Shown: in pieces, positions 37,135 to 57,947 of the stretch | Numbering within the stretch: position 1 is the first letter of the stretch | Layout: each line of letters begins with the position of its first letter | Source: a plasmid | DNA: 64,000 bases | Strand: one strand, 5' to 3' | Sequence record: NZ_CP110904.1 | Position numbers and translations under genes: made by a program | The notes under the pieces: generated by a model | The model's database searches: none | What the model was told of the DNA's origin: nothing | The model's input: the letters and a program-made list of their open reading frames with translations, nothing else

Positions 37135-37136
37135 AG

Positions 37137-38188: not shown

Positions 38189-38409
38189 AACGCACCTGGC
38201 GATAAGGATGCGCTACGCAAAATCTGGCCCGATAACCCCCGTTAACCGTGTCATTTTTCACCTAGCGCAATCTGGTGAAGTTCTGGTTCCATTTTCGCCG
38301 CTGCCGGCGTCGGAAACTACGGAAAAAACCCGCAGAGCCAGGATCTTACATTTTCCTGTTTCTGGAAATATACCATAAAAAGGAAAGAGATAATTTAGCA
38401 GGCTGATCA

Positions 38410-38436
38410 GAGAAGGATCCAAAATGGATCCTTTTT
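38410..38436 (+). terminator. Hairpin GGATCC-AAAAT-GGATCC followed by TTTTT
   Basis: Read from the sequence. Its function is uncertain, as no convincing + gene lies upstream. Confidence 0.3.
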
Positions 38437-38721
38437 CCTTGGATGATGTGGTGATCGGGTGGTGGTAAGGCCCATATGATGTGTTCTGTGACAAACTGCC
38501 CCCGGTGAGGCAGCGCTTCCTGAAAATGGGGTTTTCGGATCCGCGCGGCGGGAAACCGGCAAAGGATATGATTATATGGAGAATATAAGAAAATCATATT
38601 TAGTGTGATATTTATCATTAAACATAAAATCATATCTGATATGATGTTTAACAATTTACGCATAAATAATACCAAGTATGATTATCCACTTAACAGGACA
38701 ATATCAGACGGAGCGTGCAGG

Positions 38722-38982
38722 ATGGATCAGGAACTGAATTTTTCACTCAGCTATGAGCAGCTTTTTCAGGAAGCGGAAGCACAGATTAAAAAATGCGATC
38801 TCCGCGAGGCTGGCCCTTACTACCTCCAGGAGCTGAACAAAGCCCGGGACTTCCTGGCTTTCTGGCACCGGCTGGCGCTGAAAGGGCAAACAGGAGCACC
38901 GGATGCCCGTTTCTATGACCGCATAGACGCCGACTGGGAGCGCCTGGACACGCTTATCCGGAACGGGAACAACGCAGCATGA
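38722..38982 (+). CDS. Hypothetical protein (86 aa), first gene of the GC-rich trio
   Basis: The ATG at 38722 is preferred over the track start 38605, which lies in AT-rich DNA. The gene overlaps the next start (ATGA). Confidence 0.45.
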   Translation: MDQELNFSLSYEQLFQEAEAQIKKCDLREAGPYYLQELNKARDFLAFWHRLALKGQTGAPDARFYDRIDADWERLDTLIRNGNNAA

Positions 38983-40190: not shown

Positions 40191-40840
40191 GCACAGGCAA
40201 CGTCCATTTGATTGTGACCTGCACGAGCCGTAAAACCGTGCCTGCAGGTGATTCGGTCTTTCCGGATGAACGTGACGTGGAGAGAGCTTACGGGCTCTGG
40301 CTTGAAAGGCTGGCGAAGGCCCGACGCGGATCGCCCTCCATGACCGCCGGCGAGCTGTATACGGGCCAGCACTGGAGCAGGGCAGCTGCAGCTGCGGCGC
40401 GGAACGGTGCCGAAATGTGGGTGATTTCAGCTGGCCTGGGGCTACTGCACGTATCAGACCCGGTGGTCCCGTATGAAGCGACGTTCTCCTCGATGCCGTT
40501 CTGCCATCGCACTCACTGGGAACGGCTGACAACGCGACCGCCTGCGGAACGGCGGTGTGCCTCCCTGAAGACGCTGATGCAGGCAGGGCCTGACGATCGG
40601 TTTGTGGTCGCCGCCTCCCCGGTGTACCTGCGCGCCGTTGAATCTGACCTGCTCGCGGGGAGGGGAGCGCTACGTACATCTGAACAGCTGCAGGTTGTCA
40701 CCTCAAAGGGTTACCAGGGGAAGCTGAAAGACAACGTCAGATACACCAGTGCGGGTATGATGAAGGCACTGAACACCAATATGACGGGGCTCAATATCAG
40801 CTATGCATCTCAGTTACTTGTTAACGACGTAAGTAAATGA
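40187..40840 (+). CDS. Hypothetical protein (217 aa), third gene of the GC-rich trio
   Basis: Translationally coupled to the upstream gene. No motif recognised. Confidence 0.55.
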   Translation: MSTGNVHLIVTCTSRKTVPAGDSVFPDERDVERAYGLWLERLAKARRGSPSMTAGELYTGQHWSRAAAAAARNGAEMWVISAGLGLLHVSDPVVPYEATFSSMPFCHRTHWERLTTRPPAERRCASLKTLMQAGPDDRFVVAASPVYLRAVESDLLAGRGALRTSEQLQVVTSKGYQGKLKDNVRYTSAGMMKALNTNMTGLNISYASQLLVNDVSK

Positions 40841-41018
40841 CATAAGAGTAAGCACCCTGACAGGACGTAAAACTAAAACTCGCGACTTCTTTTTTGATAT
40901 ACGTTACTCAGAAACGATATCATAGGATTTCAGGGAAATATTACGTGCTCTGCTTTCCGAAAGGCTGAACACAATCAAAACAGCCATAAAATATGTATAT
41001 GTAAGGTGCCATTATAAA

Positions 41019-43040
41019 ATGGATTTAGTTTTAGATAATCAAACGAAAAGTTATGCAGTGCAAAATTACAGGCAAGATATAGATGGTCTTCGCGCTGTCG
41101 CCGTCCTGCTTGTTATATTATTTCATGCAGGATTGTCATACTTCCCTTCGGGCTTTATTGGTGTTGATATATTTTTCACCATATCAGGCTTTCTGATTAC
41201 CGGAAAAGTCATCAGTGAAATTGAAAGAGGAACATTCTCACTAACTAATTTTATAAAAGGCAGATTATGGCGATTGCAGCCTGCACTGCTGGTGACAATT
41301 CTCGGCGCAATCATTGTAGCGACATACTGCTACATGCCTGACGATTACACCGCATTCGCAAAAAGTGCCAAATACACCACTCTTTTCTTATCAAACCAGT
41401 ATTTTGATAAGCTTAGTGCAGCATATGCATCTCCTGACTCTGATTACTTCCTGCTTTTGCATACATGGTCGCTGGCAATTGAATGGCAGTGGTATTTTTT
41501 CTTTGCGATTTTCGCGACCATTTTGACACTACTGGCCAGTAAATTTAAAAGAAAGTTTGCGTATAAGCCGTTCCTTTATGGCTGGTTGTTACTTACCTTA
41601 ACTGCAACAATAGTTGTTATTCTTGTCAGTCTGTACTCGCCCAGTCAGCATTACTACTCATTAAATATGCGCGCTTTTGAGTTTCTGATTGGTGGGAGCG
41701 TAGCTTTATTAAAGGACAGAGTTCAGATAACCAACAGATGGATAACTAATACTCTGGCAGTAGTAGCTATCGCTGTACTTATCTGCACTTCAGGTTTAAG
41801 CATACCTGTTGAGACATATCCAAATAGCTGGACACTGCTTGTTTGCCTTGCCTCAGCAACATTACTGATAAACCAGAACACATTCGTAAATCGCACCTTA
41901 CAGTTAGCACCGATAAACTACACAGGGAAAATTTCTTATTCTCTGTACCTGTGGCACTGGCCCATTTTTGCGGCGTTCAACTATCTTGAGTTCTCTCTGT
42001 CCGGCAGGACACTGTGCATTGCGCTGGTGATAACTGCAGGACTGGCGGTGCTTACCTATCACGGTATTGAAGAGCGCTTCCGACGGGTTAAGCTGTCATT
42101 TGCAAAGAGTATAATCCTGCTTGTATTACTCCCTCTTACGGTCTGCACAAGCCTTTACTCATTAACCGTGAAAACGAATGGTTTGCCACAGCGCTTCAGC
42201 GATGAATACAATCGCTCGTTACAGCTGCTGAATTCCGCCTCCGAGAATGCCGCATCGAGGGATGGCTGCCTCAGTGGAAGCCAGGACCTTACGGACTGTC
42301 AGTTCGGCGATCATGAAGGTTCGAAGAAAGCCTTTCTGATTGGCGATTCAAACGCTAACCAGTTCTGGGGGTTTTATGATGTGCTGGCTAAGGATGCTGG
42401 CATAAAAATGTATTCCCTCACCACCTCTTCGTGCCTGACCTTACCAGGAATTTATCAGTTTGACTGGTGGAAATATAAAGGTGTCAAATATCAGGAATGT
42501 CATGATAACGCAGAGCAATATTATGATTATATAAAATCAAATCACTTTGACTACGTCATTATAGGGCATGTATGGTCAAACTATTTTGCAGCCCAGTTAA
42601 TCACTGACGATGGGGATGAGCGAAGTGAAGCACTCTCAGACAGTCGATACGAAATGGCGTTACGTACAGCCATACGTACTATCATAGATGCGGGTTCAAA
42701 GCCAATCATCATGTTCACCATTGCAACCATGCCACGCAACTATCAAAACTGTATAAATCAGCACGTTATTCATCGACGTCCATTTGACATCAATGAATGT
42801 GATATGCAAAACCCGGCAAATACCAACGGGGAAAAAGTCACGCAACTGATGAGTAAAATGAAGGCTGAGTTCCCAGCGCTGACTTTTATTGACCCTAAAT
42901 CAATACAGTGTATTAGTGGTAAATGCATTACCAATATTGATGGCGTAACTGTTTATCGTGATGTGGGACATCTTACCGATTATGCTTCCTATAAATTCGG
43001 TCAGCTGTACCTAAATGAATTTGGTAATCCATTAAAATGA
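41019..43040 (+). CDS. OafA/YrhL-type integral-membrane O-acyltransferase (acyltransferase_3 plus C-terminal SGNH domain)
   Basis: Family signature DGLRAVAVLLVILFHAG at the N-terminus, about 10 hydrophobic helices over 350 aa, then a ~300-aa soluble C-terminal domain. About 35% G+C. Confidence 0.85.
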   Translation: MDLVLDNQTKSYAVQNYRQDIDGLRAVAVLLVILFHAGLSYFPSGFIGVDIFFTISGFLITGKVISEIERGTFSLTNFIKGRLWRLQPALLVTILGAIIVATYCYMPDDYTAFAKSAKYTTLFLSNQYFDKLSAAYASPDSDYFLLLHTWSLAIEWQWYFFFAIFATILTLLASKFKRKFAYKPFLYGWLLLTLTATIVVILVSLYSPSQHYYSLNMRAFEFLIGGSVALLKDRVQITNRWITNTLAVVAIAVLICTSGLSIPVETYPNSWTLLVCLASATLLINQNTFVNRTLQLAPINYTGKISYSLYLWHWPIFAAFNYLEFSLSGRTLCIALVITAGLAVLTYHGIEERFRRVKLSFAKSIILLVLLPLTVCTSLYSLTVKTNGLPQRFSDEYNRSLQLLNSASENAASRDGCLSGSQDLTDCQFGDHEGSKKAFLIGDSNANQFWGFYDVLAKDAGIKMYSLTTSSCLTLPGIYQFDWWKYKGVKYQECHDNAEQYYDYIKSNHFDYVIIGHVWSNYFAAQLITDDGDERSEALSDSRYEMALRTAIRTIIDAGSKPIIMFTIATMPRNYQNCINQHVIHRRPFDINECDMQNPANTNGEKVTQLMSKMKAEFPALTFIDPKSIQCISGKCITNIDGVTVYRDVGHLTDYASYKFGQLYLNEFGNPLK

Positions 43041-43066
43041 ATCAGGTGTACGGTAATGACTCCAAC

Positions 43067-43570
43067 TTATTGATAGTGTTTTATGTTCAGATAATGCCCG
43101 ATGACTTTGTCATGCAGCTCCACCGATTTTGAGAACGACAGCGACTTCCGTCCCAGCCGTGCCAGGTGCTGTCTCAGATTCAGGTTATGCCGCTCAATTC
43201 GCTGCGTATATCGCTTGCTGATTACGTGCAGCTTTCCCTTCAGGCGGGATTCATACAGCGGCCAGCCATCCGTCATCCATATCACCACGTCAAAGGGTGA
43301 CAGCAGGCTCATAAGACGCCCCAGCGTCGCCATAGTGCGTTCACCGAATACGTGCGCAACAACCGTCTTCCGGAGCCTGTCATACGCGTAAAACAGCCAG
43401 CGCTGGCGCGATTTAGCCCCGACGTATCCCCACTGTTCGTCCATTTCCGCGCAGACGATGACGTCACTGCCCGGCTGTATGCGCGAGGTTACCGACTGCG
43501 GCCTGAGTTTTTTAAATGGCGGAAAATCGTGTTGAGGCCAACGCCCATAATGCGGGCGGTTGCCCGGCAT
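43067..43570 (-). CDS. insB: IS1 InsB (made as an InsAB' fusion by frameshift)
   Basis: [50 protein letters not shown]… is the canonical InsB. Confidence 0.9.
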
Positions 43571-43764
43571 CCAACGCCATTCATGGCCATATCAATGATT
43601 TTCTGGTGCGTACCGGGTTGAGAAGCGGTGTAAGTGAACTGCAGTTGCCATGTTTTACGGCAGTGAGAGCAGAGATAGCGCTGATGTCCGGCAGTGCTTT
43701 TGCCGTTACGCACCACCCCGTCAGTAGCTGAACAGGAGGGACAGCTGATAGAAACAGAAGCCAC
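43489..43764 (-). CDS. insA: IS1 InsA
   Basis: [43 protein letters not shown]… is the canonical InsA. Confidence 0.9.
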
Positions 43765-43797
43765 TGGAGCACCTCAAAAACACCATCATACACTAAA

Positions 43798-45783
43798 TCA
43801 GTAAGTTGGCAGCATCACCAATTGACGATACAAATCACTCAGTTCTGTTCTTAATTTTTCTATATCCTTCTCCTCACCTGAATTCTCGATCGCCAGTAAT
43901 TGCTTTTCTTTAACAGTAATTCTTTCACACAACTCTGATAGCGTTGAACAAAATGCCTCTGTATGAGTGGCAGGATAGACGCTTTCATCCTGTTCAGTAC
44001 TCCGCTTACGAACTGAAGTCACTGGTTTAATTTGATGTTCCAGGTTATAGGCTATCTGACGTTCCCTGCGATTGTGCGTTTCATCCATCGCCTGTTTCAT
44101 GGCCGGAGTGATCCTGTTTGCATAGAGTACGGCTTTACCCTCCACATTACGTGCCACACGTCCAATCATCTGAATAAGTGCGTGTGATGAACGTAAAAAA
44201 CCTGCATGGTCAGCATCAAGTATCGCGACCAGTGAGGCTTCAGGGATGTCGAGTCCTTCACGCAGCAGACTGATGCCGATTAAGACATCAAATTCCCCGG
44301 CCCGTAATCCATTGATAATTTCCTGTCTTTCATCTGTTTTGATATCAGAATGCAGATATCGGGACAGGATCCCATTTTCTGTCAGAAAATCATTCAGTTC
44401 TTCTGCGGTCTTTTTGGTCAGCACTGTCACCAGGACACGATTGTTTCTGTTGACGCAATGACGGATTTCTTCAAGTAAGTTCTCCACACACTGGTCTTTG
44501 CTTCGGACCTCAATTTCGGGATCCAGTAAACCGGTGGGGCGGATAATTTGCTGAACAACATTTTTCTTTGATTTCTGCAATTCATATTTACCTGGGGTTG
44601 CGGAAACAAAGACAGTCTGGGGCTTAATCTTCTCAAACTCAGCAAAACTCAGGGGACGATTGTTTTTTGAGGAGGGCAGACGGAAGCCGAAATCGATAAG
44701 AGTATCCTTGCGACTCTGATCGCCACTGTACATGGCTGAGATTTGCGGGACCATTACGTGCGATTCATCAACAAAGAGCAGACCATTTTTTGGCAGGTAA
44801 TCCAGCAGCGTTGTCGGTGGGAGTTCCGGATTTCTGTCGCTGAAATAGCAGGAATAGTTTTCCATACCTGAGCAGTAACCCAGTTCACGGATCATTTCAA
44901 CATCATTGTTAACGCGTTCGTATAAGCGCTCAGCCTCTATCAGACGATTTGCTTTGTTAAGTTCAGCAACCCGTTTCTCCATGTCAGTAAGAATGCTTTT
45001 GGTGGCTGAGGGTATTTTTGCGGTCGGTGTAACAAAGAGTGTTTTGGGTGATATTAAATAATGTTCAATGTCGCCCGTAATTTTCCCACTGACAGGATCA
45101 ATCCATTTTGCGGATTCTATAACATCATCAAAGAGTTCGACCCTGATGGCCTGATGTTCGGAATCGGCAGGGAATATATCAATAACGTCACCGCGAACCC
45201 GGAACATTGCCCGTCCCAGAGTTTTGTCTGTACGGGCATACTGCAGACGTGCCAGTTGATGAATTAACTCCCGCTGGGCGAGTTGTCGTCCTGGGTATAC
45301 CGGGATCTGGATCTCTCTGTATGCGTCCGGATCACCTAATCCGTATATCGAAGAGACGGAAGCGACGACTATCACATCCTGACGTTCAATCAATGCCTTG
45401 GTCGTAGATAACCGTAACCTTTCAAGATGATCGTTGATAGCGGAATCTTTCGGGATAAAGCGGTCACTTCCGGGGATATAGACTTCTGGCTGAAAAAAGT
45501 CGTAGTAAGAAACGAAGTATTCGACAGCATTTTCTGGGAAAAACTGCTTCATCTCCAGATAAAGCTGTGCGGTTAACGTCTTGTTAGGAGCCAGTATTAA
45601 TGTAGGGCGCTGCAAACGGTGTATCACATTCGCCATGGTGAAGGTTTTACCCGAGCCGGTTATCCCCTGAAGTGTCTGATGTGTTGCTCCTGCTTCGACT
45701 CCCGCTATCAGTCTGGCTATTGCTTCGGGCTGATCTCCTGACGGGATATAGCCTGAATGTAAAATGAATTTTCCTGTGGACAT
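43798..45783 (-). CDS. UvrB-family excinuclease subunit, divergent paralog (661 aa); C-terminus supplied by the IS1 end
   Basis: [46 protein letters not shown] and the DEAD/helicase motifs are colinear with E. coli UvrB but diverge substantially from it. SD AGGAGA before the ATG at 45783 (track 45825). The last six codons VMLPTY plus the stop lie inside IS1. Confidence 0.85.
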
Positions 45784-46024
45784 TATGATCTCTCCTGGTT
45801 GGAACGCCCCGGACAGCGTTAACACTACTACACTATAGTTTATGACAACCCGACGTAAGGCATTTATGCCTGACTGAAGAAAAGTTATTTGTTCTGTACC
45901 AATAAGTTGGCGTTCTGTTCACTTCTATTGTGTACCGTTAAAGTACGAATGTGCCTGATACAACTCTGTCATCTGTCTGGGTTTGTACATCGTGGGGTCA
46001 ATATTTTTTCTTGCATAGTATAGG

Positions 46025-46046
46025 GGGGTATACTATAGTCTCTTCA
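46025..46046 (+). promoter_or_regulatory. Probable FrmR operator (ATAGTATA-GGGGGG-TATACTAT) embedded in the frmR-frmA promoter
   Basis: Perfect AT-rich inverted repeat flanking a G6 tract, the CsoR/RcnR/FrmR operator type. -35 TTGCAT (46021) and -10 TATAGT (46044) are 17 nt apart. Confidence 0.65.
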
Positions 46047-46069
46047 ATCCTGATTAACAGGGACAATCA

Positions 46070-46345
46070 ATGCCACATTCTCCAGAAGAAAAGAAACAGG
46101 CGCTTGTCCGGGTACGACGTATCAAAGGTCAGATTGCAGCGCTGGAACAGGCGATTGAAAACGAAGCGGAATGTTCTTCATTGTTGCAGCAACTGGCTTC
46201 GGTACGAGGAGCCGTTAAAGGCCTGATGACTGTTGTTCTGGAAAGCTATCTCAGGGAAGAATTTCCCGATACGAACAAAAGAAGGGGGTCGCAGACGAAA
46301 TCTATCAACGACGCTATTTCCATTGTTCGCTCCTATCTCCGTTAA
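46070..46345 (+). CDS. frmR: FrmR-family (CsoR/RcnR-like) formaldehyde-responsive repressor, divergent copy
   Basis: MPHSPEEKKQALVRVRRIKGQIAALEQAIENEAECSSLLQQLASVRGAVKGLM… matches the FrmR fold and the Cys35 region. Confidence 0.85.
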   Translation: MPHSPEEKKQALVRVRRIKGQIAALEQAIENEAECSSLLQQLASVRGAVKGLMTVVLESYLREEFPDTNKRRGSQTKSINDAISIVRSYLR

Positions 46346-46400
46346 CTCTGCCAGGCAGACGTCTGATGGGGTCAGTAAAAACAGTAATAAAAGGATATGA

Positions 46401-47513
<1,113 letters not shown>

Positions 47514-47563
47514 TTCAGGTTTCACTGGCGATCTTTCAATATTAGTTTTAAAGGAAACAATCC

Positions 47564-47962
47564 ATGTCCAATCCAGTTATTTCAGGCAATGGCATCTTCT
47601 CTCACGTCTTTATCGGTGCTGTAGATGTTCAAAAGTCGGCTGAGTTTTATGACGCCACTTTAGGTGCACTCGGTATCAACAACCTTGGTCCTTTTGGTAA
47701 TGGCTGGGTGTTGTTTGGCCGTGACAAGCCGGCTTTCATCATTGCCCGTCCTGGCAATGGTGAAGCGCCATCCAGCAATGGTGTGACGATTGGCTTTGCT
47801 GCCGCCACGCCTGCTGAAGTTGACGCTTTCCATGCCGCAGGCCTGGCTGCTGGCGGGACTGATGAAGGTCAACCGGGTCCTCGTGGTCATCTGCCAGGTG
47901 CTTATGCTGCCTACCTGCGTGATCCGGCTGGTAACAAGATCTGCTCCTATACCTTCATCTGA
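47564..47962 (+). CDS. VOC/glyoxalase-bleomycin-resistance family protein (132 aa)
   Basis: Size and pattern typical of the small VOC family (…HVFIGAVDVQKSAEFY…). Confidence 0.6.
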   Translation: MSNPVISGNGIFSHVFIGAVDVQKSAEFYDATLGALGINNLGPFGNGWVLFGRDKPAFIIARPGNGEAPSSNGVTIGFAAATPAEVDAFHAAGLAAGGTDEGQPGPRGHLPGAYAAYLRDPAGNKICSYTFI

Positions 47963-48119
47963 TCGTAGGGTGCATCCGGCACAAATGTTGTACGGTTTGT
48001 CAGTCAGGCGAACGGTATGAGTTGTGCCAGCTTATGAAGATCAACCCGCAGACGTTTACGTCTGCGGGTATCTTTCTCGAAGCGTAATGTGACTGGCCGT
48101 CAGAAAAAGAGAGAGTCTT

Positions 48120-49454
48120 ATGAAAGAGTCAGCATTATCTGCTATCCGTTCTGAGATGCAATCGCCCGAAACCGTGTACGGGATGCCGGCTCATAAAGAC
48201 AGAACGGCCGCTGTCAATGAAGTACATGCGCGTCCGCACCTGCTTATCACATCACCACAGACCCTGCTGCAGTTTGCTTTCATGACTAAAGGCGACCAGT
48301 CAGGTGACCAGCGGGTCATGGTTGAGCTGTCAGATCGTCTTGGTTTAACACCATCAGAAAATTCAGCCCCCCTGCACGGTATCACGTGGCGGGAAGGCGC
48401 TTTGTATTGTGAAAAACACGGTGAGTTTTCCACCTACTTATGGAGTACCACATGCGATCCGCGTGACGGACAGTTAAGGGGAGAGAACCCCTTCCGGCAT
48501 GGTTTCACGCCACCGGGTTCGGTTATCTGTGGTACCCGTCTGGATATTCTGCCATGGACTGCAGAATCTGAGGCTGCAGTAACGAATTTAGATCCTGTCA
48601 GCAGGTGCTATTCAGTAACAGAAAATGGCCGTGCCGCAATTATCTCTGATTTTCGCCAGGATAAAGACGGACTGACACGCATTCTGATACTTGAACGGGA
48701 CCTGACAGAGGCACAGCTGGGTGCACTGGTTCAGCGGCTGCTTGAGATTGAAAATTATCGCACGCTTGCTTTGCTTTCTTTACCACTGACAAGAACCATG
48801 GCCTCTGAACTGAGGCGAGTGGAAAACCGACTGGCTGAAATTACAGAAGAAATGCGCACCGGAGAGCATCGTAAAAATGAACAGTTGCTCTCTGCGTTGA
48901 CCAATCTTGCCGCAGAACTTGAAGCCGGCGCTGCAGCGAATCTGTACCGGTTTGGCGCAAGCCAGGCCTACTATGAAATTGTTGAGGAAAGGCTGAATAC
49001 GCTCTCCGAAACGCCGGTTCCAGGCTACTACACCTGGGCTGATTTTTTGCAACGGCGCATTGCCCCAGCCATGCGAACCTGCCGTTCTGTGAAAGAACGA
49101 CAGGCGAAGCTGTCTGACAAACTCATGCGGGCTATTTCGTTACTTCGCTCCTGGATAGATGTTGAACTGGAACATCAGAACCGTGACCTGCTGGCTTCGA
49201 TGAATAACCGGGCCAGACAACAGCTACATCTGCAGCAAACCGTTGAAGGATTGTCTGTTGCCGCCATTTCATATTATGTGGTGAGTCTGATTTCGTATCT
49301 GGTGAAAGGGGTTCCCGGGATCCACGATGTCATGCCACCTGAACTGGCGGTTGCCATTCTCGTGCCCTTCATTGTGCTCGCGATTTGGTGGGTGGTGCGA
49401 AGAATAAGAAACTCGCACACCGACCCTGAACATAACGAAAACCACTCTGACTGA
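48120..49454 (+). CDS. Hypothetical protein (444 aa) with a C-terminal membrane anchor (possibly DUF3422-like)
   Basis: Large soluble part plus C-terminal hydrophobic helices (LSVAAISYYVVSLISYLV, AVAILVPFIVLAIWWVV). Confidence 0.5.
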   Translation: MKESALSAIRSEMQSPETVYGMPAHKDRTAAVNEVHARPHLLITSPQTLLQFAFMTKGDQSGDQRVMVELSDRLGLTPSENSAPLHGITWREGALYCEKHGEFSTYLWSTTCDPRDGQLRGENPFRHGFTPPGSVICGTRLDILPWTAESEAAVTNLDPVSRCYSVTENGRAAIISDFRQDKDGLTRILILERDLTEAQLGALVQRLLEIENYRTLALLSLPLTRTMASELRRVENRLAEITEEMRTGEHRKNEQLLSALTNLAAELEAGAAANLYRFGASQAYYEIVEERLNTLSETPVPGYYTWADFLQRRIAPAMRTCRSVKERQAKLSDKLMRAISLLRSWIDVELEHQNRDLLASMNNRARQQLHLQQTVEGLSVAAISYYVVSLISYLVKGVPGIHDVMPPELAVAILVPFIVLAIWWVVRRIRNSHTDPEHNENHSD

Positions 49455-49501
49455 GTTGTTACGTTGTTGCTTAATTGTCCTGTCGTTATACGGAGAAAAT
49501 C

Positions 49502-50332
49502 ATGGAACGTCTTGAACATCATGCCAGCTTTGATGGGTGGCAGGAAGTTTATCAGCATGAGTCTGGCACGCTTGGCTGCACGATGAAATTTGGTGTTTAT
49601 ACTCCACCCCAGGCGCTTAACGGTAATGTACCGGTACTCTACTGGCTTTCCGGTCTGACCTGTACGGAACAGAATTTTATTACCAAATCGAGCGTTCAGC
49701 GTTATGCCGCAGAGCATGGGATCATGATTGTGGCACCAGACACCAGTCCGCGTGGCACTGATATTCCTGATGATCCTGACTACGCTCTCGGTCAGGGGGC
49801 AGGATTCTATGTTAATGCAACCCAGGAGCCCTGGGCGACACATTACAAAATGTATGACTATGTGGTAAACGAGCTCCCGTCCCTGATTGAAGAATGGTTC
49901 CCGGCGTCTGATAAAAGAAGTATCAGTGGACATTCGATGGGCGGACATGGCGCCCTGATGATTGCGCTCAGAAACCCGGGCCGCTATCAGAGTGTATCCG
50001 CATTCTCACCGATCGTCGCACCTTCTCAGGTGCCCTGGGGAGAAAATGCATTGTCTGCTTATCTGGGTGATGATCGGGAATACTGGAAGCAGTACGACAC
50101 GGTTGAGTTGATCCGTAACGCGCAGGAAAGGCTACCTCTGCTTGTAGATCAAGGACTGAATGATGAGTTTCTGAAGACTCAGCTTCAGCCGGAGAGACTG
50201 AAGAGCGTTTGTGAGGACACCGGTCATCCGTTGACGCTTAACCTGCGTCCGGGCCACGATCACAGCTACTACTTTATCTCCAGCTACATTGGCGACCACA
50301 TTGCACATCATGCAGCAGCACTGACGCGCTAA
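49502..50332 (+). CDS. S-formylglutathione hydrolase (esterase D; FrmB/YeiG family)
   Basis: MERLEHHASFDGWQ…VLYWLSGLTCTEQNF…SISGHSMGGHGAL carries the GHSMGG nucleophile elbow. SD GGAG before the ATG at 49502. Confidence 0.85.
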   Translation: MERLEHHASFDGWQEVYQHESGTLGCTMKFGVYTPPQALNGNVPVLYWLSGLTCTEQNFITKSSVQRYAAEHGIMIVAPDTSPRGTDIPDDPDYALGQGAGFYVNATQEPWATHYKMYDYVVNELPSLIEEWFPASDKRSISGHSMGGHGALMIALRNPGRYQSVSAFSPIVAPSQVPWGENALSAYLGDDREYWKQYDTVELIRNAQERLPLLVDQGLNDEFLKTQLQPERLKSVCEDTGHPLTLNLRPGHDHSYYFISSYIGDHIAHHAAALTR

Positions 50333-50343
50333 ATTCAGGAATT

Positions 50344-51660
50344 ATGGTTATGGTACATTTCTGCGATCAAAAACATCATGTCGTCGTGATAGGGGCTGGG
50401 TTCGGTGGACTCTCCGTTGTCAGAGAACTGGAAGAGCCGGGCGTTTCGATCACAATCATTGACCGGAGTAACCACCATCTGTTTCAGCCTTTACTTTATC
50501 AGGTCGCTGGCGCATCACTGCCATCAGCAGAAATTGCCTGGCCCGTTCGCTCTCTGTTTCGTCATCGTGAGGATGTACGTACCCTGATGGCCGAGGTCCA
50601 GGATGTGGATACCGATTCACGGGAGGTTCTGCTGAAAGATGGTTCCCGAATTGATTATGACACGCTTGTCGTTGCCACTGGGGCCACGCACGCTTATTTC
50701 GGTCATGATGAGTGGGAACAGTTTGCACCGGGACTGAAGAACCTGGATGATGCCACGACCCTGCGCGCACGGATCCTTTCCGCTTTTGAACAAGCTGAGA
50801 ATACCACTGATCCCGCGTTACGGGCTGCCTACCAGACATTCGTCATTGTCGGGGGGGGACCGACAGGCGTTGAGCTGTCCGGGACCATTGCCGAACTGGC
50901 AAGGAAAACGCTGAAAAATGATTTCCGTTCTATTGATCCGACAGAGACCAGAATTATTCTGGTTGAAGCCGGACAACGATTGCTCACTGCTTTCCCGGAG
51001 TCATTATCGGAATATACCCGTCAGTCCCTGGAGAAACTGGGAGTGGAAGTCAGTTTTGGCCAACCGGTAACGGAATGCTCTGCCGAAGGCGTAGTATATG
51101 GTGGGCAACCTCTTCCTGCCAAAACGATCATCTGGGCAGCAGGCGTCACTGCTTCTCCGGCTGCACGCTGGCTCAAGACGGAAGCTGATCGGGCTGGTCG
51201 GGTTATCGTGGGAGCTGATCTCACGCTCCCGTTACACCCTGAAATATTTGTAATAGGTGATACCGCGGCCGTGACCGGAGAGGACGGCAGGATGATCCCG
51301 GGCATTGCTCCGGCCGCAAAACAGGAAGGACAGTATGTGGCTAAACTGATCCAGTCCCGTTTAAAGGATGAAAAACCTGACCTGAAACCTTTCCGGTACC
51401 GGCATCAGGGGAACCTAGCGACCATAGGTCGCGGACTGGCTGTGGTTGATATGGGACGGTTAAAACTCCGGGGAGCCATGGCGTGGTGGTTCTGGAAAAT
51501 TATCCACCTGTATTTTTTGATCGGAACCAGAAACCGGCTGAGTGTCGCTATCAGCTGGATCTGGAACCACAGTATCGGATACAGGGGAGCCCGCATTATC
51601 ACGGGAGGTAAATCACCTGCTCCGGATAAGAGTGCGGTCCATTCCCGCTCAGAAGAGTGA
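50344..51660 (+). CDS. Type II NADH:quinone oxidoreductase (NDH-2)
   Basis: HHVVVIGAGFGGLSVV (first GxGxxG), a second FAD/NAD fold FVIVGGGPTGVELSG, and C-terminal WWFWKIIHLYFLIG. Confidence 0.8.
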   Translation: MVMVHFCDQKHHVVVIGAGFGGLSVVRELEEPGVSITIIDRSNHHLFQPLLYQVAGASLPSAEIAWPVRSLFRHREDVRTLMAEVQDVDTDSREVLLKDGSRIDYDTLVVATGATHAYFGHDEWEQFAPGLKNLDDATTLRARILSAFEQAENTTDPALRAAYQTFVIVGGGPTGVELSGTIAELARKTLKNDFRSIDPTETRIILVEAGQRLLTAFPESLSEYTRQSLEKLGVEVSFGQPVTECSAEGVVYGGQPLPAKTIIWAAGVTASPAARWLKTEADRAGRVIVGADLTLPLHPEIFVIGDTAAVTGEDGRMIPGIAPAAKQEGQYVAKLIQSRLKDEKPDLKPFRYRHQGNLATIGRGLAVVDMGRLKLRGAMAWWFWKIIHLYFLIGTRNRLSVAISWIWNHSIGYRGARIITGGKSPAPDKSAVHSRSEE

Positions 51661-51863
51661 TACCTGAACCTTACTGATGCCGCTGAAACATCAGCGGCAT
51701 TCCTTATTTAATCACCGGCGCCGGCGCAGGCTATTCGCTTACTGCTGCATAAATCCCTTTTGTCATTATTCCTTCTTAACTAATGGTTCGGCACATCGGT
51801 TAACGCCATTCAACGTAACCAGCGTCAGAAGTAAAGTTGATTTACGTATTACAGGATTAAACT

Positions 51864-54515
51864 ATGTCAAAGAAACTTTTTGGTGCCCCCCCAACCCTGA
51901 CAGACGCCAGTAATTCTGTTGTGGTACGTGGTGCCAGGGAGCACAACCTTAAAGAGGTGGATGTCTCTGTTCCGCGTGATGCACTTGTTGTCTTTTCGGG
52001 GGTCTCTGGTTCCGGTAAGTCTTCACTGGCTTTTGGAACCATTTATGCTGAGGCGCAACGACGCTACTTTGAATCGGTTGCCCCGTATGCGCGGCGCCTC
52101 ATTGATCAGGCCGGTGTTCCGGATGTGGATGCCATTGATGGACTCCCCCCTGCAGTTGCCCTTCAACAACAGCGAGGAACCAGCAACGCACGCTCTTCTG
52201 TCGGCAGTGTGACCACCTTATCGAGCCTGGTGCGCATGATGTATTCCCGGGCGGGAGCCTATCCGGCAGAACAACCTATGCTCTATGCTGAGGATTTTTC
52301 TCCTAACACGCCTCAGGGAGCATGTCCATCCTGCCATGGTCTCGGACATATCTATGATGTGACAGAAGCACTGATGGTACCTGATCCGTCACTCAGTATC
52401 CGGGACAGAGCCATTGCCTCCTGGCCACCTGCCTGGCACGGACAAAATCTTCGCGACATTCTGGTGACACTGGGCTATGACGTCGATATCCCCTGGAAAG
52501 AGTTATCTGAAGAAGAGCGACACTGGATCCTGTTTACTGAAGATACCCCAACGGTGCCGGTCTACCCCGGGCTCAGCCCGGAAGACACACGTGTCGCAGT
52601 CAGGGAAAAAATGACTCCGGGTTATATGGGGACGTTTACAGGGGCGCGACGTTATGTTCTGCATACCTTTGCACACACCCAAAGTGCACTGATGAGGAAA
52701 CGCGTCTCCAGTTTTATGGAAGGAAAACTGTGTCCTGTCTGCCACGGAAAAAGGCTTAAACCGGAATCATTGTCAGTCACTTTTGCTGGTGTGGACATCG
52801 GTGAGTTTATGCAGATGCCTTTAGACCAGCTGGCAGAGTTGCTTCTTCCTATCTCCCGGGGGGATTTCAGTACGCATCATGCCGGGGCTGATACTGACAG
52901 GGATATCACCCGCCGGGATCGGACAGAACGCGCCGGTTCCGGCAGGGCAGTCCATTCTGTAACGCCGGATGTCCGCCGGACCTCAGCATTATCGACAGAG
53001 AAACGACTGGCTGCTCAACGACTGACCAGAGGTGTTATGGACCGGCTGTATCAGTTGCAGAAACTGGGACTTGGTTATCTGACATTAGACAGAACAACGC
53101 CAACACTCTCCGCAGGGGAACTCCAGCGATTGCGTCTTGCCACTCAGCTTAGCTCCATGTTGTTTGGGGTCGTCTATGTTCTCGATGAACCATCAGCAGG
53201 CCTGCACCCTGCAGACAGCCATGCACTTTACGATGCTCTGGAGAACCTGCGGGATGCCGGAAACTCAGTGTTTGTCGTTGAGCATGATCTTGACCTGATG
53301 CGACGGGCGCAATGGCTGGTTGATGTGGGACCCGCTGCAGGAGAACAGGGCGGTCATATTCTCTACAGTGGTGTACCTGAAGGTCTGAAAGCTATTGCTG
53401 AATCCAGAACGGCACGGTATTTGTTTGATGAAATCAGGCCACCACAATCATACGCCCGACAGCCAGCAGGATGGTTAAAATTACAGGATATTCACCGTCA
53501 CAACCTGAAGGGACTGGACGCCTGTATTCCTCTGGGGGTACTGACCGCTGTTACAGGTATTTCGGGTTCCGGAAAGTCTAGTCTGATTGCTCAGGCCTTA
53601 CCTGAGCTGGTGCTTTCCTCGCTTGGCCATGAACCAGAAGACGTGTTATCCGAGGGCAGTGATGCTGAGGGACCAACCGTTACTGAGAAAACGTACGGTA
53701 CGCTGACAGGCGACACCGGACTGATCAAACGTCTGGTGCAGGTTGACCAGAAACCGATAGGCCGGACACCGCGTTCTAACCTGGCGACATATACCGGACT
53801 GTTTGACCATATTCGTAAGCTCTTTGCCGGAACACCTGCTGCTAAAAACTATCATTATGATGCCGGACAGTTTTCTTTCAATGTGGCAAAAGGTCGCTGT
53901 GAAACCTGTGAGGGTGAAGGGTTCGTCAGCGTTGAACTCTTGTTTATGCCCAGTGTGTATGCCCCTTGTCCGACATGTCATGGCGCACGCTATAACCCTG
54001 ATACGCTCAGGGTTCGCTGGAAGGAGCGAAACATTGCGGAAGTCTTGCAGATGACAGTGGATGAAGCCTGCAGCTTCTTTGCTGATGTAGAACCCGTGGC
54101 GCGACCTCTGCGCCTGCTGGGCGAAATCGGTCTGGGATATCTGCGTCTGGGTCAACCAGCCACTGAGTTATCCGGAGGAGAAGCTCAACGGATAAAGCTG
54201 GCAACCGAACTGCAGCGTAGTCAACGTGGCCATACGCTGTATGTTCTGGATGAACCGACCACCGGACTCCATGCGTCAGATGCCGACCGTCTGCTTGTGC
54301 AGTTGCAGCGTCTTGTTGAGACAGGGAATACCGTAGTTGTGATTGAACACGATATGCGTGCAGTCGTGCAGGCTGACTGGGTTATGGACATTGGTCCCGG
54401 AGCAGGTCATGAGGGAGGCAACCTGGTTGCAGAAGGTACACCCGCCCAGGTATCACTGGTTTGTGAAAGCCGCACGGCACCGTTTATTGCCCGGGAGTTG
54501 TCACGGAACTGGTAA
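51864..54515 (+). CDS. Class II UvrA (UvrA2-type ABC ATPase lacking the UvrB-binding domain)
   Basis: Two ABC cassettes (GVSGSGKSSL, GISGSGKSSL; LSGGE x2; YVLDEP x2) plus Zn modules (CPSCHGLG, CPVCHGKR, CETCEGEG, CPTCHGAR). Only about 20 aa lie between the LVRMMYSRAG region and the first Zn finger, where E. coli UvrA has a ~120-aa UvrB-binding domain. Extra ~30-aa Arg-rich insertion at ~340-380. Confidence 0.85.
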   Translation: MSKKLFGAPPTLTDASNSVVVRGAREHNLKEVDVSVPRDALVVFSGVSGSGKSSLAFGTIYAEAQRRYFESVAPYARRLIDQAGVPDVDAIDGLPPAVALQQQRGTSNARSSVGSVTTLSSLVRMMYSRAGAYPAEQPMLYAEDFSPNTPQGACPSCHGLGHIYDVTEALMVPDPSLSIRDRAIASWPPAWHGQNLRDILVTLGYDVDIPWKELSEEERHWILFTEDTPTVPVYPGLSPEDTRVAVREKMTPGYMGTFTGARRYVLHTFAHTQSALMRKRVSSFMEGKLCPVCHGKRLKPESLSVTFAGVDIGEFMQMPLDQLAELLLPISRGDFSTHHAGADTDRDITRRDRTERAGSGRAVHSVTPDVRRTSALSTEKRLAAQRLTRGVMDRLYQLQKLGLGYLTLDRTTPTLSAGELQRLRLATQLSSMLFGVVYVLDEPSAGLHPADSHALYDALENLRDAGNSVFVVEHDLDLMRRAQWLVDVGPAAGEQGGHILYSGVPEGLKAIAESRTARYLFDEIRPPQSYARQPAGWLKLQDIHRHNLKGLDACIPLGVLTAVTGISGSGKSSLIAQALPELVLSSLGHEPEDVLSEGSDAEGPTVTEKTYGTLTGDTGLIKRLVQVDQKPIGRTPRSNLATYTGLFDHIRKLFAGTPAAKNYHYDAGQFSFNVAKGRCETCEGEGFVSVELLFMPSVYAPCPTCHGARYNPDTLRVRWKERNIAEVLQMTVDEACSFFADVEPVARPLRLLGEIGLGYLRLGQPATELSGGEAQRIKLATELQRSQRGHTLYVLDEPTTGLHASDADRLLVQLQRLVETGNTVVVIEHDMRAVVQADWVMDIGPGAGHEGGNLVAEGTPAQVSLVCESRTAPFIARELSRNW

Positions 54516-54706: not shown

Positions 54707-55138
54707 ATGAAACTATTTACGATTGGTTTCACACAATCTTCGGCGGAGCATTTTTTTACGCGCCTGAAGGAATCCGGAGCAAGACGTATTCTGGATGTGC
54801 GTCTCAATAATCGCTCTCAGCTGGCAGGTTTTGCAAAACAGGACGATCTGAAGTTCTTTGCCCATACTCTATGTGATATCGATTACGCACATATGCCAGA
54901 TCTTGCCCCGACGCGGGAAATGTTTGAGCGATACAAATTACAGAAAGGAGACTGGGAGATATATTCTTCGGATTTCATCGATCTGATTACAAAAAGACAT
55001 ATCGAATCGCTCGAAAAGAGTCAGTTTGCTGATGCTTGCTTATTGTGTAGCGAACATAAACCACATCATTGCCACAGACGGCTGGTTGCTGAGTACCTGG
55101 CAGATAAATGGCCTGATGTCACTATCATGCATTTATAG
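54707..55138 (+). CDS. Hypothetical protein (143 aa), possibly DUF488/YeaO-like
   Basis: MKLFTIGFTQSSAEHFFTRLKESGARRILDVRLNNRS matches the DUF488 N-terminal pattern. Confidence 0.45.
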   Translation: MKLFTIGFTQSSAEHFFTRLKESGARRILDVRLNNRSQLAGFAKQDDLKFFAHTLCDIDYAHMPDLAPTREMFERYKLQKGDWEIYSSDFIDLITKRHIESLEKSQFADACLLCSEHKPHHCHRRLVAEYLADKWPDVTIMHL

Positions 55139-55502: not shown

Positions 55503-55778
55503 ATGCCCAGTACTCCGGAAGAGAAAAAAAAGGTACTGACACGGGTTCGCCGCATCAGAGGGCAGATTGATGCTCTGGAAAGAGCACTTGAAAATGGTGC
55601 TGAATGCCGCGCCATTCTCCAGCAAATTGCTGCCGTTCGTGGCGCATCTAACGGATTGATGGCTGAGGTTCTGGAGAGTCACATACGAGAAACCTTTGAC
55701 CAGAATGACAGCTATAGCCATGAAGTCAGTAAATCAGTTGACGATACGATTGAACTGGTTCGCGCCTATCTTAAATAG
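55503..55778 (+). CDS. frmR: FrmR, canonical E. coli-like copy, not followed by frmA
   Basis: [65 protein letters not shown] is about 90% identical to E. coli FrmR from memory. Confidence 0.9.
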
Positions 55779-56351
55779 CAACTGACCGGTAAACCCGGTC
55801 ACTGCTGGATGTCATTATGAACACCAACCGAACGGCATAGTCAGTCCACAGGTACTACTCATTCCCTGACTATGTCCCAGGAGTCCAGTGTCGTTCAGCC
55901 AAAACTAATTTCTGCTTTGTATACCACTACGACAAATGCTGTCATCAGTTCAGGTGCGATAATTTCGTTATCATGCGCAGTACATACTGCCCTGAGTTTT
56001 CTGATCCAGTAATCATTCTCGGCACCAGTGTTCCAGGTGCCGCCTCGCCCTACAGATATCTGTAATTGTAAACCGTCGCAAGACCGGTCCAGGCGATAGG
56101 GCAGAATCGCCCACTGTTCGGAAAACCAGTACTAACTGACAGTTCTGGTACTGGGGGCTGGTCACAGCACTGTATAGGCCAATTCTGTGCGGCGTTGTCA
56201 CCTGACCTGTCTGAAGAAATTTCCCGCACGCAACAGGTTACTACTCAGAAGTGATAACCCAAGTCCTCATCAAACATCAAAAAATATTTTCAGATAAAAA
56301 TCAAGTGTTTATAATTTTTTAATCCTTATCAACAGTATTGGTATTGCCAGT

Positions 56352-56371
56352 TACTATACTGCCGTATAGTA
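56352..56371 (+). promoter_or_regulatory. FrmR-operator-like inverted repeat TACTATAC-TGCC-GTATAGTA upstream of the Fe-ADH gene
   Basis: Same AT-rich arms as the 46025 operator, but with a 4-nt spacer. It lies ~90 nt upstream of the ATG at 56464. Confidence 0.45.
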
Positions 56372-56463
56372 TATGAAGCAGATAATGTACACACAGAAAC
56401 AACAAGGCTATCAAGATTTAAAATGCCCTCTCTAATATTTAAACTGACGAAAGGATATTAACT

Positions 56464-57615
56464 ATGAGTAATGTATTTTATATGCCGCCTGTAACCCTAA
56501 TGGGACTGAATGCTATTCGTCTTTTAGGGGATGAACTTGTTTCAAGGGAGTTAAAAAAGGCGCTGATCGTCACTGACCGTGTTTTGGTTGACACCGGACT
56601 GGTTAACAAACTGACAGATGAGCTTGAGGTGCATAAAATTAGTTATGCAATATTTGATGGTGTTCAACCTAATCCAACAGAGAAAAATATTGATGACGGT
56701 TTAGCCTTGCTTGCAAAAAGTAATGCTGATTTTGTCATTTCCTTTGGTGGGGGGTCTTCTCACGATACAGCTAAAGGTATTGCATTGGTGGCCACTAATG
56801 GTGGGCATATTCGGGATTACTCGAAAGGTGTGCATCTGTCCAAAAAACCACAATTACCATTAGTTACTGTAAATACGACAGCGGGTACGGCATCGGAAAT
56901 GACCGTATTTGCAATCGTCACTAACCAGGAAGATGAAACTAAATACCCGGTAGTGGATAAGCACTTTACGCCTATCATTGCGGTTAACGATTCTGAACTT
57001 ATGGTCGCAATGCCTGCGTTCCTTACGGCAACTACAGGTATGGATGCCTTAACTCATGCAATTGAAGCGTATGTATCAACAGCAGCTACGCCTGTTACTG
57101 ATGCTTGTGCTATCAAAGCAATTGAAATTATTGTTAATAATCTTAAAGACGTTGTAGATGATGGCCAAAACCGCAAAGCACGTGATGCAATGCAATATGG
57201 TGAATATCTGGCTGGAATGGCATTTTCAAACGCGTCTCTTGGTTATGTCCATTCAATGGCTCACCAGTTAGGTGGCGTTTATAATCTGTCTCACGGTTTG
57301 TGTAATGCGATCCTGCTGGGTGAAGTATCCCGATTTAATGCGAAAAAGGTTCCCGATCGTTTTGTTGAAATCGCCCGGGCAATGGGGATTGATGTCTCAA
57401 CAATGACTCAGGAGCAGGCCATTAATTCTGCTATCGAAGCAATTGAGATGTTGTCGCAAAAAGTCGGTACGAATCAACGCCTGGCTGATCTTGGTGTAAC
57501 GGAGGATAAACTTGCATTTATGGCACAAAATGCACTAAATGATGCTTGTTCTTTAACCAATCCTCGTCAGGCAAGCCTTTCGGAGATTATTGAGCTCTAC
57601 AAAGCTCGTATGTAA
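56464..57615 (+). CDS. Group III iron-containing alcohol dehydrogenase (FucO/YiaY/Mdh-like)
   Basis: GGGSSHDTAKGIAL and the metal-binding His motifs (GYVHSMAHQLGGVYNLSHG). 383 aa. Confidence 0.85.
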   Translation: MSNVFYMPPVTLMGLNAIRLLGDELVSRELKKALIVTDRVLVDTGLVNKLTDELEVHKISYAIFDGVQPNPTEKNIDDGLALLAKSNADFVISFGGGSSHDTAKGIALVATNGGHIRDYSKGVHLSKKPQLPLVTVNTTAGTASEMTVFAIVTNQEDETKYPVVDKHFTPIIAVNDSELMVAMPAFLTATTGMDALTHAIEAYVSTAATPVTDACAIKAIEIIVNNLKDVVDDGQNRKARDAMQYGEYLAGMAFSNASLGYVHSMAHQLGGVYNLSHGLCNAILLGEVSRFNAKKVPDRFVEIARAMGIDVSTMTQEQAINSAIEAIEMLSQKVGTNQRLADLGVTEDKLAFMAQNALNDACSLTNPRQASLSEIIELYKARM

Positions 57616-57775: not shown

Positions 57776-57922
57776 TTAGTGCGTTTTCATCCCAGCGGCT
57801 GTCATTAGCAATTTGAATATTGTAGCAACGACCCCCAACGCCATTACACTGACAGCCCAGATAATCACCAGCCACATCAATTTTTTCCAGAATGGACGAG
57901 GTGTTTCATCAACGGTTTTCAT
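57776..57922 (-). CDS. Unannotated small membrane protein (48 aa) downstream of cydB; CydX/CioX-type accessory subunit candidate
   Basis: MKTVDETPRPFWKKLMWLVIIWAVSVMALGVVATIFKLLMTAAGMKTH has a single transmembrane helix. The ATG is 26 nt after the cydB stop. It is absent from the ORF track because it is under 60 aa. Confidence 0.45.
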   Translation of the reverse strand: MKTVDETPRPFWKKLMWLVIIWAVSVMALGVVATIFKLLMTAAGMKTH

Positions 57923-57947
57923 TTAAGTTTCTCCATTGACCTCACCA

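Follow-up and report, generated by a model that had tools for sequence, protein, structure and literature searches.

Excision-repair paralogs linked to a mobile formaldehyde-resistance island: a UvrB clade without a recognizable UVR motif and a class II UvrA

Plasmid-borne frmA, also called adhC, is an experimentally known determinant of formaldehyde resistance (PMC13029678, citing Kummerle 1996; Dorsey and Actis 2004). The frmRAB locus on IncHI2 and IncF plasmids has already been noted as a putative biocide-resistance locus. A related set of cargo genes, encoding FrmA, FrmB, FdhA, RarA, UvrA and UvrB, is carried in variable region 4 (VR4) of ICEPni1, an integrative and conjugative element (ICE) of the ICEclc family from Pseudomonas nitroreducens HBP-1; this “mosaic” list is the sole mention of combined frm and uvr cargo that we found in the literature. 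Here we analyze 64,000 nucleotides of the plasmid record NZ_CP110904.1 (the window), in which formaldehyde-detoxification genes lie between two excision-repair paralogs, a diverged UvrB (UvrB2; uvrB2, 43798-45783, minus strand) and an 883-residue class II UvrA without a UvrB-binding domain (UvrA2; uvrA2, 51864-54515, plus strand). The detoxification chemistry of this island is ordinary and already known. Judging from the comparative evidence below, the linkage of uvrB2 to frm genes is old and selected, more than chance would produce. We cautiously favor a model in which the island has two levels, the detoxification chemistry itself and, as separate repair add-ons for formaldehyde-damaged DNA, UvrB2 and UvrA2.

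The neighborhoods of diverged uvrB2 genes were compared in 12 lineages, with frmA or fdhA (glutathione-independent formaldehyde dehydrogenase) scored within 10-15 kb. One or the other lies near uvrB2 in 10 of the 12 lineages, and a class II uvrA in 8. The Pseudomonas aeruginosa ICE is among these eight by inference only, because its locus ends in rarA, ICEPni1 lists a UvrA, and rarA directly precedes uvrA2 in Comamonas. The control consisted of 80 canonical uvrB loci (at most 60% identity), taken from a scan whose motifs are common to all UvrBs and inspected over the same flank; frmA, the VOC gene, the DUF3422 gene, fghA and NDH-2 are found within 10 kb of canonical uvrB in none of the 80. Against the canonical loci, Fisher’s exact test yields p = 9e-12 for linkage to frm genes and p = 5e-9 for linkage to uvrA2, values computed over lineages that are not fully independent. 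A preliminary description of this locus had named a lack of co-inheritance with frm genes elsewhere as one outcome that would speak against it, and co-inheritance is what these counts reveal. The same association is seen in a metagenome sample whose contigs were scanned for a peptide found only in UvrB2, DESHVM[VI]PQI[SA]AMY. All 31 matches are UvrB2 (64-99% identity), and at least one island gene is present on 22 of the 31 contigs; of the 19 contigs whose flank reaches at least 4 kb, 18 have one.

The linkage spans Pseudomonas, Cupriavidus/Comamonas, Hyphomicrobiales, Bradyrhizobium, Sphingobium, Phaeobacter, Acinetobacter, Planctomicrobium and Bdellovibrionaceae, and it persists although gene order varies and identity falls to 64-74% for UvrB2 and 58-82% for UvrA2. 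The uvrB2 clade occurs almost only beside frmA, fdhA, DUF3422, NDH-2 or cydAB. The P. aeruginosa ICE has the order DUF488-uvrB2-LysR...frmR-frmA-VOC-DUF3422-fghA-NDH2-rarA. Cupriavidus and Comamonadaceae, including a Comamonas testosteroni plasmid from metal-working fluid, have uvrB2-LysR-frmA-VOC-DUF3422-fghA-NDH2-ZIP-rarA-uvrA2 between IS256 and IS1071; on the Comamonas plasmid, as in the window, the module is thus bracketed by uvrB2 and uvrA2 between two insertion sequence (IS) elements. The gene rarA (mgsA), which encodes a replication-associated recombination ATPase, lies 47 bp upstream of uvrA2 in the Pseudomonas, Cupriavidus and Comamonas islands and is not in the window. In Hyphomicrobiales the order is LysR-fdhA-frmA-VOC-fghA-NDH2-DUF3422-uvrB2-cydABX, with uvrA2 10 kb further on, and Bradyrhizobium follows the same order up to uvrB2, which is then followed by DUF488. 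A Sphingobium plasmid carries cydXBA, a frmR-like gene, LysR, SDR and fdhA, then frmA-VOC-fghA-NDH2-DUF3422-uvrB2-uvrA2-DyP-encapsulin; here uvrB2 and uvrA2 are on the same strand with a gap of about 20-80 bp (22 bp as annotated; the annotation and tblastn starts differ). A Phaeobacter plasmid has cydBA-NDH2-fghA-VOC-frmA-fdhA...uvrB2, and an Acinetobacter baumannii plasmid has uvrB2, cydAB and frmR-frmA-gfa-DUF3422-fghA-NDH2-uvrA2, split up by IS elements. In Planctomicrobium, uvrB2 is convergent with uvrA2 and adjoins a FrmR-like gene, DyP and fdhA. In Bdellovibrionaceae the order is uvrA2-MarR-uvrB2-x-fdhA, with a class II UvrA2 of 836 residues and with uvrA2 and uvrB2 divergent around the MarR gene.

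The uvrB2 open reading frame (ORF; 43798-45825, minus strand) scores 923 bits against the UvrB equivalog model NF003673 (cut-off 743). Its real start is the ATG at 45783 (MSTGKF...), which matches the rest of the clade and gives a product of 661 residues here and 658 residues natively. A protein search returned a family of 656-659-residue proteins that are 66-74% identical to the window copy, with hosts in Pseudomonas, Cupriavidus, Comamonas, Burkholderia, Achromobacter, Acinetobacter, Marinobacter, Photobacterium, Shewanella, Hyphomicrobiales, Bradyrhizobium, Planctomicrobium and Bdellovibrionaceae. The canonical UvrBs recovered are all at most 60% identical to it (55% for Escherichia coli UvrB), and UvrB2 is an extra UvrB copy in its hosts. 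We regard UvrB2 as a distinct 658-residue clade, set off from canonical UvrB.

The helicase core of UvrB2 is intact, with matches to Pfam ResIII, Helicase_C and PF12344 and with the motif QMIGRVARN present. In the hairpin (B. caldotenax numbering), Y92, Y93 and Y101 are kept, and the window copy has phenylalanine at both 95 and 96 (YYDFF). Position 96 has changed from tyrosine to phenylalanine in 75 of 109 UvrB2 members and in none of 77 canonical sequences, with aromatic character retained. The YYDFF string was rejected as a clade signature, because only Y96F is common and the Y95F of the window copy is rare (4/109). Domain 2 is matched by PF17757 at residues 177-264. All five UvrA-contact residues (R183, R194, R196, R213 and E215) are present in the window UvrB2; across the clade, conservation of R183, R194 and R213 stands at 91-95%.

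The C-terminal region is where the clade departs furthest from canonical UvrB. Compared to canonical sequences, UvrB2 proteins have a 13-residue deletion in the C-terminal linker, and none of 12 UvrB2 C-termini matches the UVR motif (PF02151) at E ≤ 1 to 10, whereas all 11 canonical C-termini used as a control do so with 28.9-48.4 bits (cut-off 21.5). Even so, UvrB2 proteins resemble one another strongly at the C-terminus, where 15 of 53 columns show no variation and the pattern is FC..L..LC..I...E...R..L..LYRQFI. In a profile-profile comparison it aligns in register with the UVR hairpin, at a probability of only 40.6%, and the invariant canonical F, AA and D are lost. Because of this combination of a conserved C-terminus, an in-register alignment and the loss of canonical invariant residues, the segment looks like a re-purposed UVR-type hairpin. 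In Shewanella, where it has no formaldehyde neighbors, uvrB2 is followed by a gene for a 1008-residue UvrD-like helicase with a Top1-type zinc ribbon.

The best solved relative of the uvrA2 product is Deinococcus radiodurans UvrA2 (2vf7, 1190 bits). In the alignment to Mycobacterium tuberculosis UvrA, query residue 132 pairs with residue 139 and query residue 142 with residue 291, and because the alignment skips this interval, the UvrB-binding domain of about 150 residues (about residues 118-256 of class I UvrA) is absent. The NCBIfam UvrA profile jumps to position 266 at UvrA2 residue 141. The stretch ...YSRAGAYP..QPMLYAEDFSPNT is continuous in all island copies, and the domain is missing from UvrA2 in every island examined. 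The other hallmarks of class II are in place, namely two ABC ATPase modules (Walker A GVSGSGKSS and GISGSGKSS; YVLDEPSAGLH and YVLDEPTTGLH), zinc modules, with the CxxC pairs visible, and the insertion (DNA-binding) domain (PF17755, residues 169-281). The preliminary description had called the protein a class II UvrA without a UvrB-binding domain, and the M. tuberculosis alignment and 2vf7 bear this out. Its comparison with DrrC and Ecm16 holds at the level of class but not of closeness, since Ecm16 (7sh1) scores 453 bits and the protein is instead of the Deinococcus UvrA2 type. We rejected the drug self-resistance subtype represented by DrrC and Ecm16, because Ecm16 is distant and the neighboring genes are formaldehyde and respiratory genes. 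Proteobacterial class II UvrAs also have an insertion of 30-45 residues (about residues 333-377; 52860-52995 in the window) with a conserved PDVRRT..LS.EK, which is missing from the Deinococcus and Bdellovibrionaceae UvrA2 proteins. A role for this insertion as a UvrB2-docking element was rejected, because it is present in proteobacterial UvrA2s regardless of nearby uvrB2 or frm genes.

UvrA2 has a broader distribution than UvrB2. Class II UvrAs 77-89% identical to the window UvrA2 are common, and uvrA2 is found in formaldehyde islands without uvrB2 in several settings: the Pseudomonas entomophila chromosome (frmA-VOC-fghA-NDH2-frmR-DUF3422-uvrA2), a Moraxella osloensis plasmid (...frmR-frmA-gfa-DUF3422-fghA-NDH2-uvrA2), an Acinetobacter pittii plasmid, and 170 Klebsiella, Enterobacter and Citrobacter plasmids, which carry a variant 88-89% identical to the window UvrA2. 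On Klebsiella pneumoniae NZ_CP138807.1, this variant adjoins an unannotated frmA remnant and fdhA, as well as the heat-resistance-locus genes trx-GI, kefB-like, psiE, htpX, degP-like and sHSP20. Within frm islands, either paralog is often present without the other.

Between the two paralogs, Pfam and NCBIfam searches agree with the preliminary description on the positions of frmR, frmA, the VOC gene, fghA and NDH-2, as they do for the uvrB paralog and the uvrA-like gene themselves; a DUF3422 gene between the VOC gene and fghA had been overlooked. The plus-strand series begins with frmR, encoding the formaldehyde-responsive repressor (46070-46345; NF008464, 137.5 bits, cut-off 133), and frmA, encoding S-(hydroxymethyl)glutathione dehydrogenase (46404-47513; TIGR02818, 733 bits). 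These are followed by the gene for a VOC/glyoxalase-fold protein, a conserved island member by Pfam and synteny (47564-47962), the DUF3422 gene (48120-49454; PF11902, E = 1e-140), fghA or frmB, encoding S-formylglutathione hydrolase (49502-50332 from the annotated start, ORF from 49475; TIGR02821, 411 bits), and the gene for the type II NADH dehydrogenase NDH-2 (50350-51660, ORF from 50344; Pyr_redox_2 and NDH2_C). FrmR, FrmA and FghA all score above the curated NCBIfam cut-offs, and frmA is 90-93% identical across related islands. The DUF3422 protein (444 residues) has a coiled-coil region and two C-terminal transmembrane helices and is constant in formaldehyde islands to the same degree as frmA; a literature search on DUF3422 returned nothing. 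In the Moraxella and Acinetobacter islands, the position immediately behind frmA, where other islands have the VOC-fold gene, is taken by gfa (S-hydroxymethylglutathione synthase). This replacement hints that the VOC protein may do a job analogous to that of gfa.

The functional island runs past 54515 to about 60367. On the plus strand it continues with a DUF488 gene (54707-55138), which in other islands usually directly adjoins uvrB2, a second frmR paralog (55503-55778; NF008464, 181.6 bits), whose product outscores the first against the FrmR model, and the gene for an iron-containing alcohol dehydrogenase (Fe-ADH; 56464-57615). It ends with a cydX-like gene (DUF2474), cydB and cydA, which encode a cytochrome bd oxidase on the minus strand (57776-60367). 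Genes for a TraN-like protein and a 631-residue UvrD/Rep-family helicase, in the window backbone at 176-2674 and 3671-5566, are unrelated to the island.

A FrmR/RcnR-type operator read from the sequence, ATAGTATA-GGGGGG-TATACTAT (46015-46036, plus strand), lies inside the frmR promoter (TTGCAT, 17 nt, TATAGT). It is confirmed as a CsoR/RcnR-type inverted repeat around a G tract, and it is the only perfect match in the window. A degenerate operator with three mismatches (56351-56372) overlaps what looks like a promoter ahead of the Fe-ADH gene, and the second frmR and Fe-ADH may form a second formaldehyde-inducible unit. The half-site-like ACTATAGT at 45832-45839 was dismissed as a FrmR operator, as it is without a G tract. 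Strong terminator-like hairpins follow the VOC gene (48044-48069) and NDH-2 (51676-51701). In other genomes, operon-like gaps are found in DUF3422-uvrB2-uvrA2 of Sphingobium, NDH2-uvrA2 of Moraxella, DUF3422-uvrA2 of P. entomophila and rarA-uvrA2 of Comamonas. The repair genes trail the frm genes by gaps of 56-100 bp in Sphingobium, Hyphomicrobiales, P. entomophila and Moraxella, and because these gaps are operon-like, co-expression of repair and frm genes is plausible in those genomes.

The segment is a horizontally mobile formaldehyde-resistance island. At least 79 Enterobacterales and Aeromonas plasmids share, at 99-100% identity, a block of 11.7 kb that runs from 43820 to at least 55500. 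These plasmids occur in Citrobacter, Escherichia, Enterobacter, Klebsiella, Salmonella, Providencia, Leclercia and Aeromonas, and their replicons include IncHI1B, IncHI2A and IncA/IncP. The right-hand part (second frmR, Fe-ADH, cydXBA) co-travels with the block on about 50 plasmids. Many carriers were isolated from hospital sinks, showers, bathrooms, washrooms, poultry and metal-working fluid, settings in which selection by formaldehyde, or by biocides that release it, is plausible. Apart from an extra 6.9 kb insert at 36126-43051, the window corresponds to pCF_324-2, an IncHI1B plasmid of Citrobacter freundii. The inserted segment, which is missing from the otherwise identical plasmid CP078021, contains a rve-type integrase fragment, a 60-64% GC stretch with two ORFs (one DUF6884, one without a Pfam match) and an AT3-SGNH acyltransferase gene.

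In the present plasmid, the left edge of the island is marked by a complete IS1 of 768 bp (43052-43819, minus strand), identified by its transposase (Pfam and NCBIfam) and an inverted-repeat match; the block shared among plasmids begins at 43820. The element has inserted at codon 655 of uvrB2, and its terminal inverted repeat (43797-43819) provides the last uvrB2 codons. By C-terminal comparison, the native end, ...LYRQFIFM followed by the stop codon, has been altered to carry LVMLPTY in place of FIFM, which displaces two residues that are nearly invariant in the UvrB2 clade.

In the two-level model, formaldehyde would inactivate FrmR, leading to expression of frmA and the downstream genes. 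By family assignment, FrmA and FghA oxidize glutathione-bound formaldehyde to formate, as is established for the frmA mechanism, with the VOC and DUF3422 proteins probably assisting detoxification, and NDH-2 and cytochrome bd would most likely re-oxidize the resulting NADH. Moreover, cydAB recurs in related islands, and because NDH-2 and cydABX co-travel with formaldehyde genes in Alpha-, Beta- and Gammaproteobacteria, the pair suggests a dedicated, non-proton-pumping route for the NADH from formaldehyde oxidation. At the second level, UvrB2, UvrA2 and DUF488 (with RarA in sister islands) would raise tolerance to the lesions that escape detoxification, that is, DNA-protein crosslinks, interstrand crosslinks and adducts. 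Nakano and co-workers reportedly found in 2007 that small DNA-protein crosslinks formed by formaldehyde are substrates of nucleotide excision repair in E. coli, which removes them, and that uvr mutants are formaldehyde-sensitive. We propose that UvrB2 is loaded by the host class I UvrA, because its domain-2 docking arginines R183, R194 and R213 are kept, and that its hand-off to UvrC is altered or replaced, because a clade-specific C-terminal hairpin stands in place of the UVR motif. UvrA2 would be an ATP-driven lesion binder that acts without UvrB, as proposed for other class II UvrAs. The two paralogs are most likely separate add-ons and not a closed pair, given that each occurs alone, that UvrB2 keeps the docking arginines and that UvrA2 has no compensating feature.

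Several observations weigh against this model. The repair role of UvrB2 and UvrA2 is inferred from gene linkage and sequence, and is in this sense guilt by association; the islands probably share ancestry, maybe through a single ancestral element, so the lineages cannot count as trials independent of one another. The uvrB2 genes of Photobacterium and Shewanella have no island genes within 10 kb, and uvrA2 is found alone in Stenotrophomonas and Pluralibacter chromosomes (78-81% identity) and, in more distant form, in Methylobacterium and Deinococcus. In Enterobacterales uvrB2 looks dispensable: only its first 213 codons are left on some 12 E. coli plasmids that keep uvrA2, it is interrupted by an IS in K. 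pneumoniae, and it is clipped by IS1 here. Two of the UvrA-contact residues, R196 (27%) and E215 (31%), are eroded in the UvrB2 clade. In the window, the uvrB2 gene is divergent from frmR, with the FrmR operator about 230 bp from its start, and uvrA2 lies behind the terminator that follows NDH-2, with no FrmR operator within three mismatches in its vicinity; the FrmR co-regulation suggested in the preliminary description is thus not seen for uvrA2 in the window. The window has no consensus-like LexA/SOS box, and no CTGT-N8-ACAG is found upstream of uvrB2 or uvrA2, which counts against the model in the case of uvrA2.

Other explanations of the same linkage can be weighed against these points. 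The preliminary description had proposed a non-canonical complex private to UvrA2 and UvrB2, which would recognize aldehyde or crosslink damage as its specialty and would not depend on the host UvrA. Gene arrangement gives this idea some appeal, since the two genes bracket the module in the window and in Comamonas and are co-directional and adjacent in Sphingobium, convergent neighbors in Planctomicrobium and divergent around MarR in Bdellovibrionaceae. The canonical hand-off modules are also gone from both proteins (the UvrB-binding domain from UvrA2, the UVR motif from UvrB2), UvrB2 has gained a conserved C-terminal module, and the eroded R196 and E215 belong to the class I interface. However, each paralog is frequent without the other inside frm islands, with uvrB2 even truncated on the E. 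coli plasmids described above. The three arginines that dock class I UvrA are retained, no sequence feature of UvrA2 tracks the presence of UvrB2, and a class II UvrA has no known surface for binding UvrB. The dedicated complex is left unsupported by these results, and we consider it rather unlikely. In a bolder version, UvrB2, UvrA2 and DUF488, joined in other islands by RarA, would together repair formaldehyde-induced DNA-protein and interstrand crosslinks by a self-contained route that bypasses the canonical UvrA-UvrB-UvrC hand-offs. The UvrB2 hairpin would then recruit a partner other than UvrC, with UvrA2 and the phosphatase-fold DUF488 protein, whose gene often adjoins uvrB2, as candidates, and formaldehyde damage would be the natural substrate of Deinococcus-type class II UvrAs. 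We offer this as a speculation and think it unlikely to be correct.

The island could also be a general defense against biocides or oxidants, in which the damage handled by the repair paralogs comes from oxidants, chlorine or other electrophiles and the formaldehyde genes are one module among several. Cytochrome bd, NDH-2, DyP peroxidase with encapsulin, gshA and ZIP do co-occur with the paralogs, the K. pneumoniae uvrA2 variant adjoins genes of a heat/chlorine-resistance locus, plasmid frmRAB adjoins chlorite dismutase in A. baumannii ST19, and isolation sources include sinks, showers and metal-working fluids. Against this, the oxidant genes are variable, and the genes that lie nearest to both paralogs, and do so most constantly, are frmA, fghA, fdhA and those for FrmR-type regulators, in many cases with operon-like spacing, so that we find a general oxidant function improbable. 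Finally, the uvr paralogs might be hitchhikers, leftover mosaic cargo of ICEs and transposons with no tie to formaldehyde, which is how ICEPni1 VR4 was described. IS elements are plentiful around the module, and uvrB2 decays on some plasmids. Yet the linkage, which is seen in none of the 80 control loci, has outlasted 26-36% protein divergence, several gene orders, plasmid, ICE and chromosome settings, and four phyla or classes; the catalytic motifs persist in both proteins, and the C-terminus of UvrB2 is strongly constrained. Pure hitchhiking thus seems very unlikely to us, and we retain the two-level model with separate repair add-ons.

These comparisons matter in several ways. Plasmid frmRAB is tracked as a biocide-resistance marker, relevant to formalin, formaldehyde-releasing preservatives and methenamine prophylaxis, and the mobile unit is larger than frmRAB, with paralogs of DNA-repair proteins and an alternative respiratory chain as recurrent components. 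A gain in repair capacity through multidrug-resistance plasmids could also change the supply of mutations when disinfectants impose stress. The role of class II UvrAs outside antibiotic producers has long been unclear since the UvrA2 structure, and the frm linkage provides a concrete and cheap hypothesis for it. The UvrB2 clade is a newly defined UvrB subfamily, and as a protein with helicase, hairpin and domain 2 but no recognizable UVR motif, it is a natural separation-of-function variant for the UvrB-UvrC hand-off.

A literature search that combined UvrA2, UvrB2 or DUF3422 with formaldehyde turned up no paper in which the two are connected, and most matches to ‘UvrA2’ or ‘UvrB2’ were dimer notation. 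The linkage of frm chemistry with a UvrB clade that has no UVR motif, a class II UvrA, DUF488, RarA, NDH-2, cytochrome bd and DUF3422 thus appears undescribed. The nearest precedent for the whole assembly is ICEPni1 VR4, whose gene order is shared by the ICE-borne relatives in P. aeruginosa. It resides on an ICE and not on an IncHI/IncA/IncP plasmid, it has rarA and a LysR regulator, both absent from the window, and it was described only as a mosaic, with no functional link drawn. For the detoxification genes, the reference systems are E. coli frmRAB and the adhC plasmid pVU3695, with which the island shares a FrmR with a G-tract operator, FrmA, FghA and a plasmid location; in nucleotide sequence, the island frmA has about 89% identity to the chromosomal region. 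Compared to these systems, the island adds the VOC and DUF3422 genes, NDH-2, a second frmR with Fe-ADH, and cydABX, and it is flanked by excision-repair paralogs that are unmentioned in the searchable frmRAB literature. UvrA2 shares with D. radiodurans UvrA2 and other class II UvrAs the two ABC ATPase modules, zinc modules, insertion domain and lack of a UvrB-binding domain, and it differs from Deinococcus UvrA2, DrrC and Ecm16 in having the PDVRRT insertion and in sitting in formaldehyde islands rather than antibiotic clusters. UvrB2, in turn, resembles canonical UvrB in its helicase motifs, the aromatic character of its β-hairpin, domain 2 and PF12344 match and scores above the equivalog cut-off, but is set apart by Y96F in most members, the 13-residue linker deletion and the FC..L..LC..I...E...R..L..LYRQFI module that replaces UVR.

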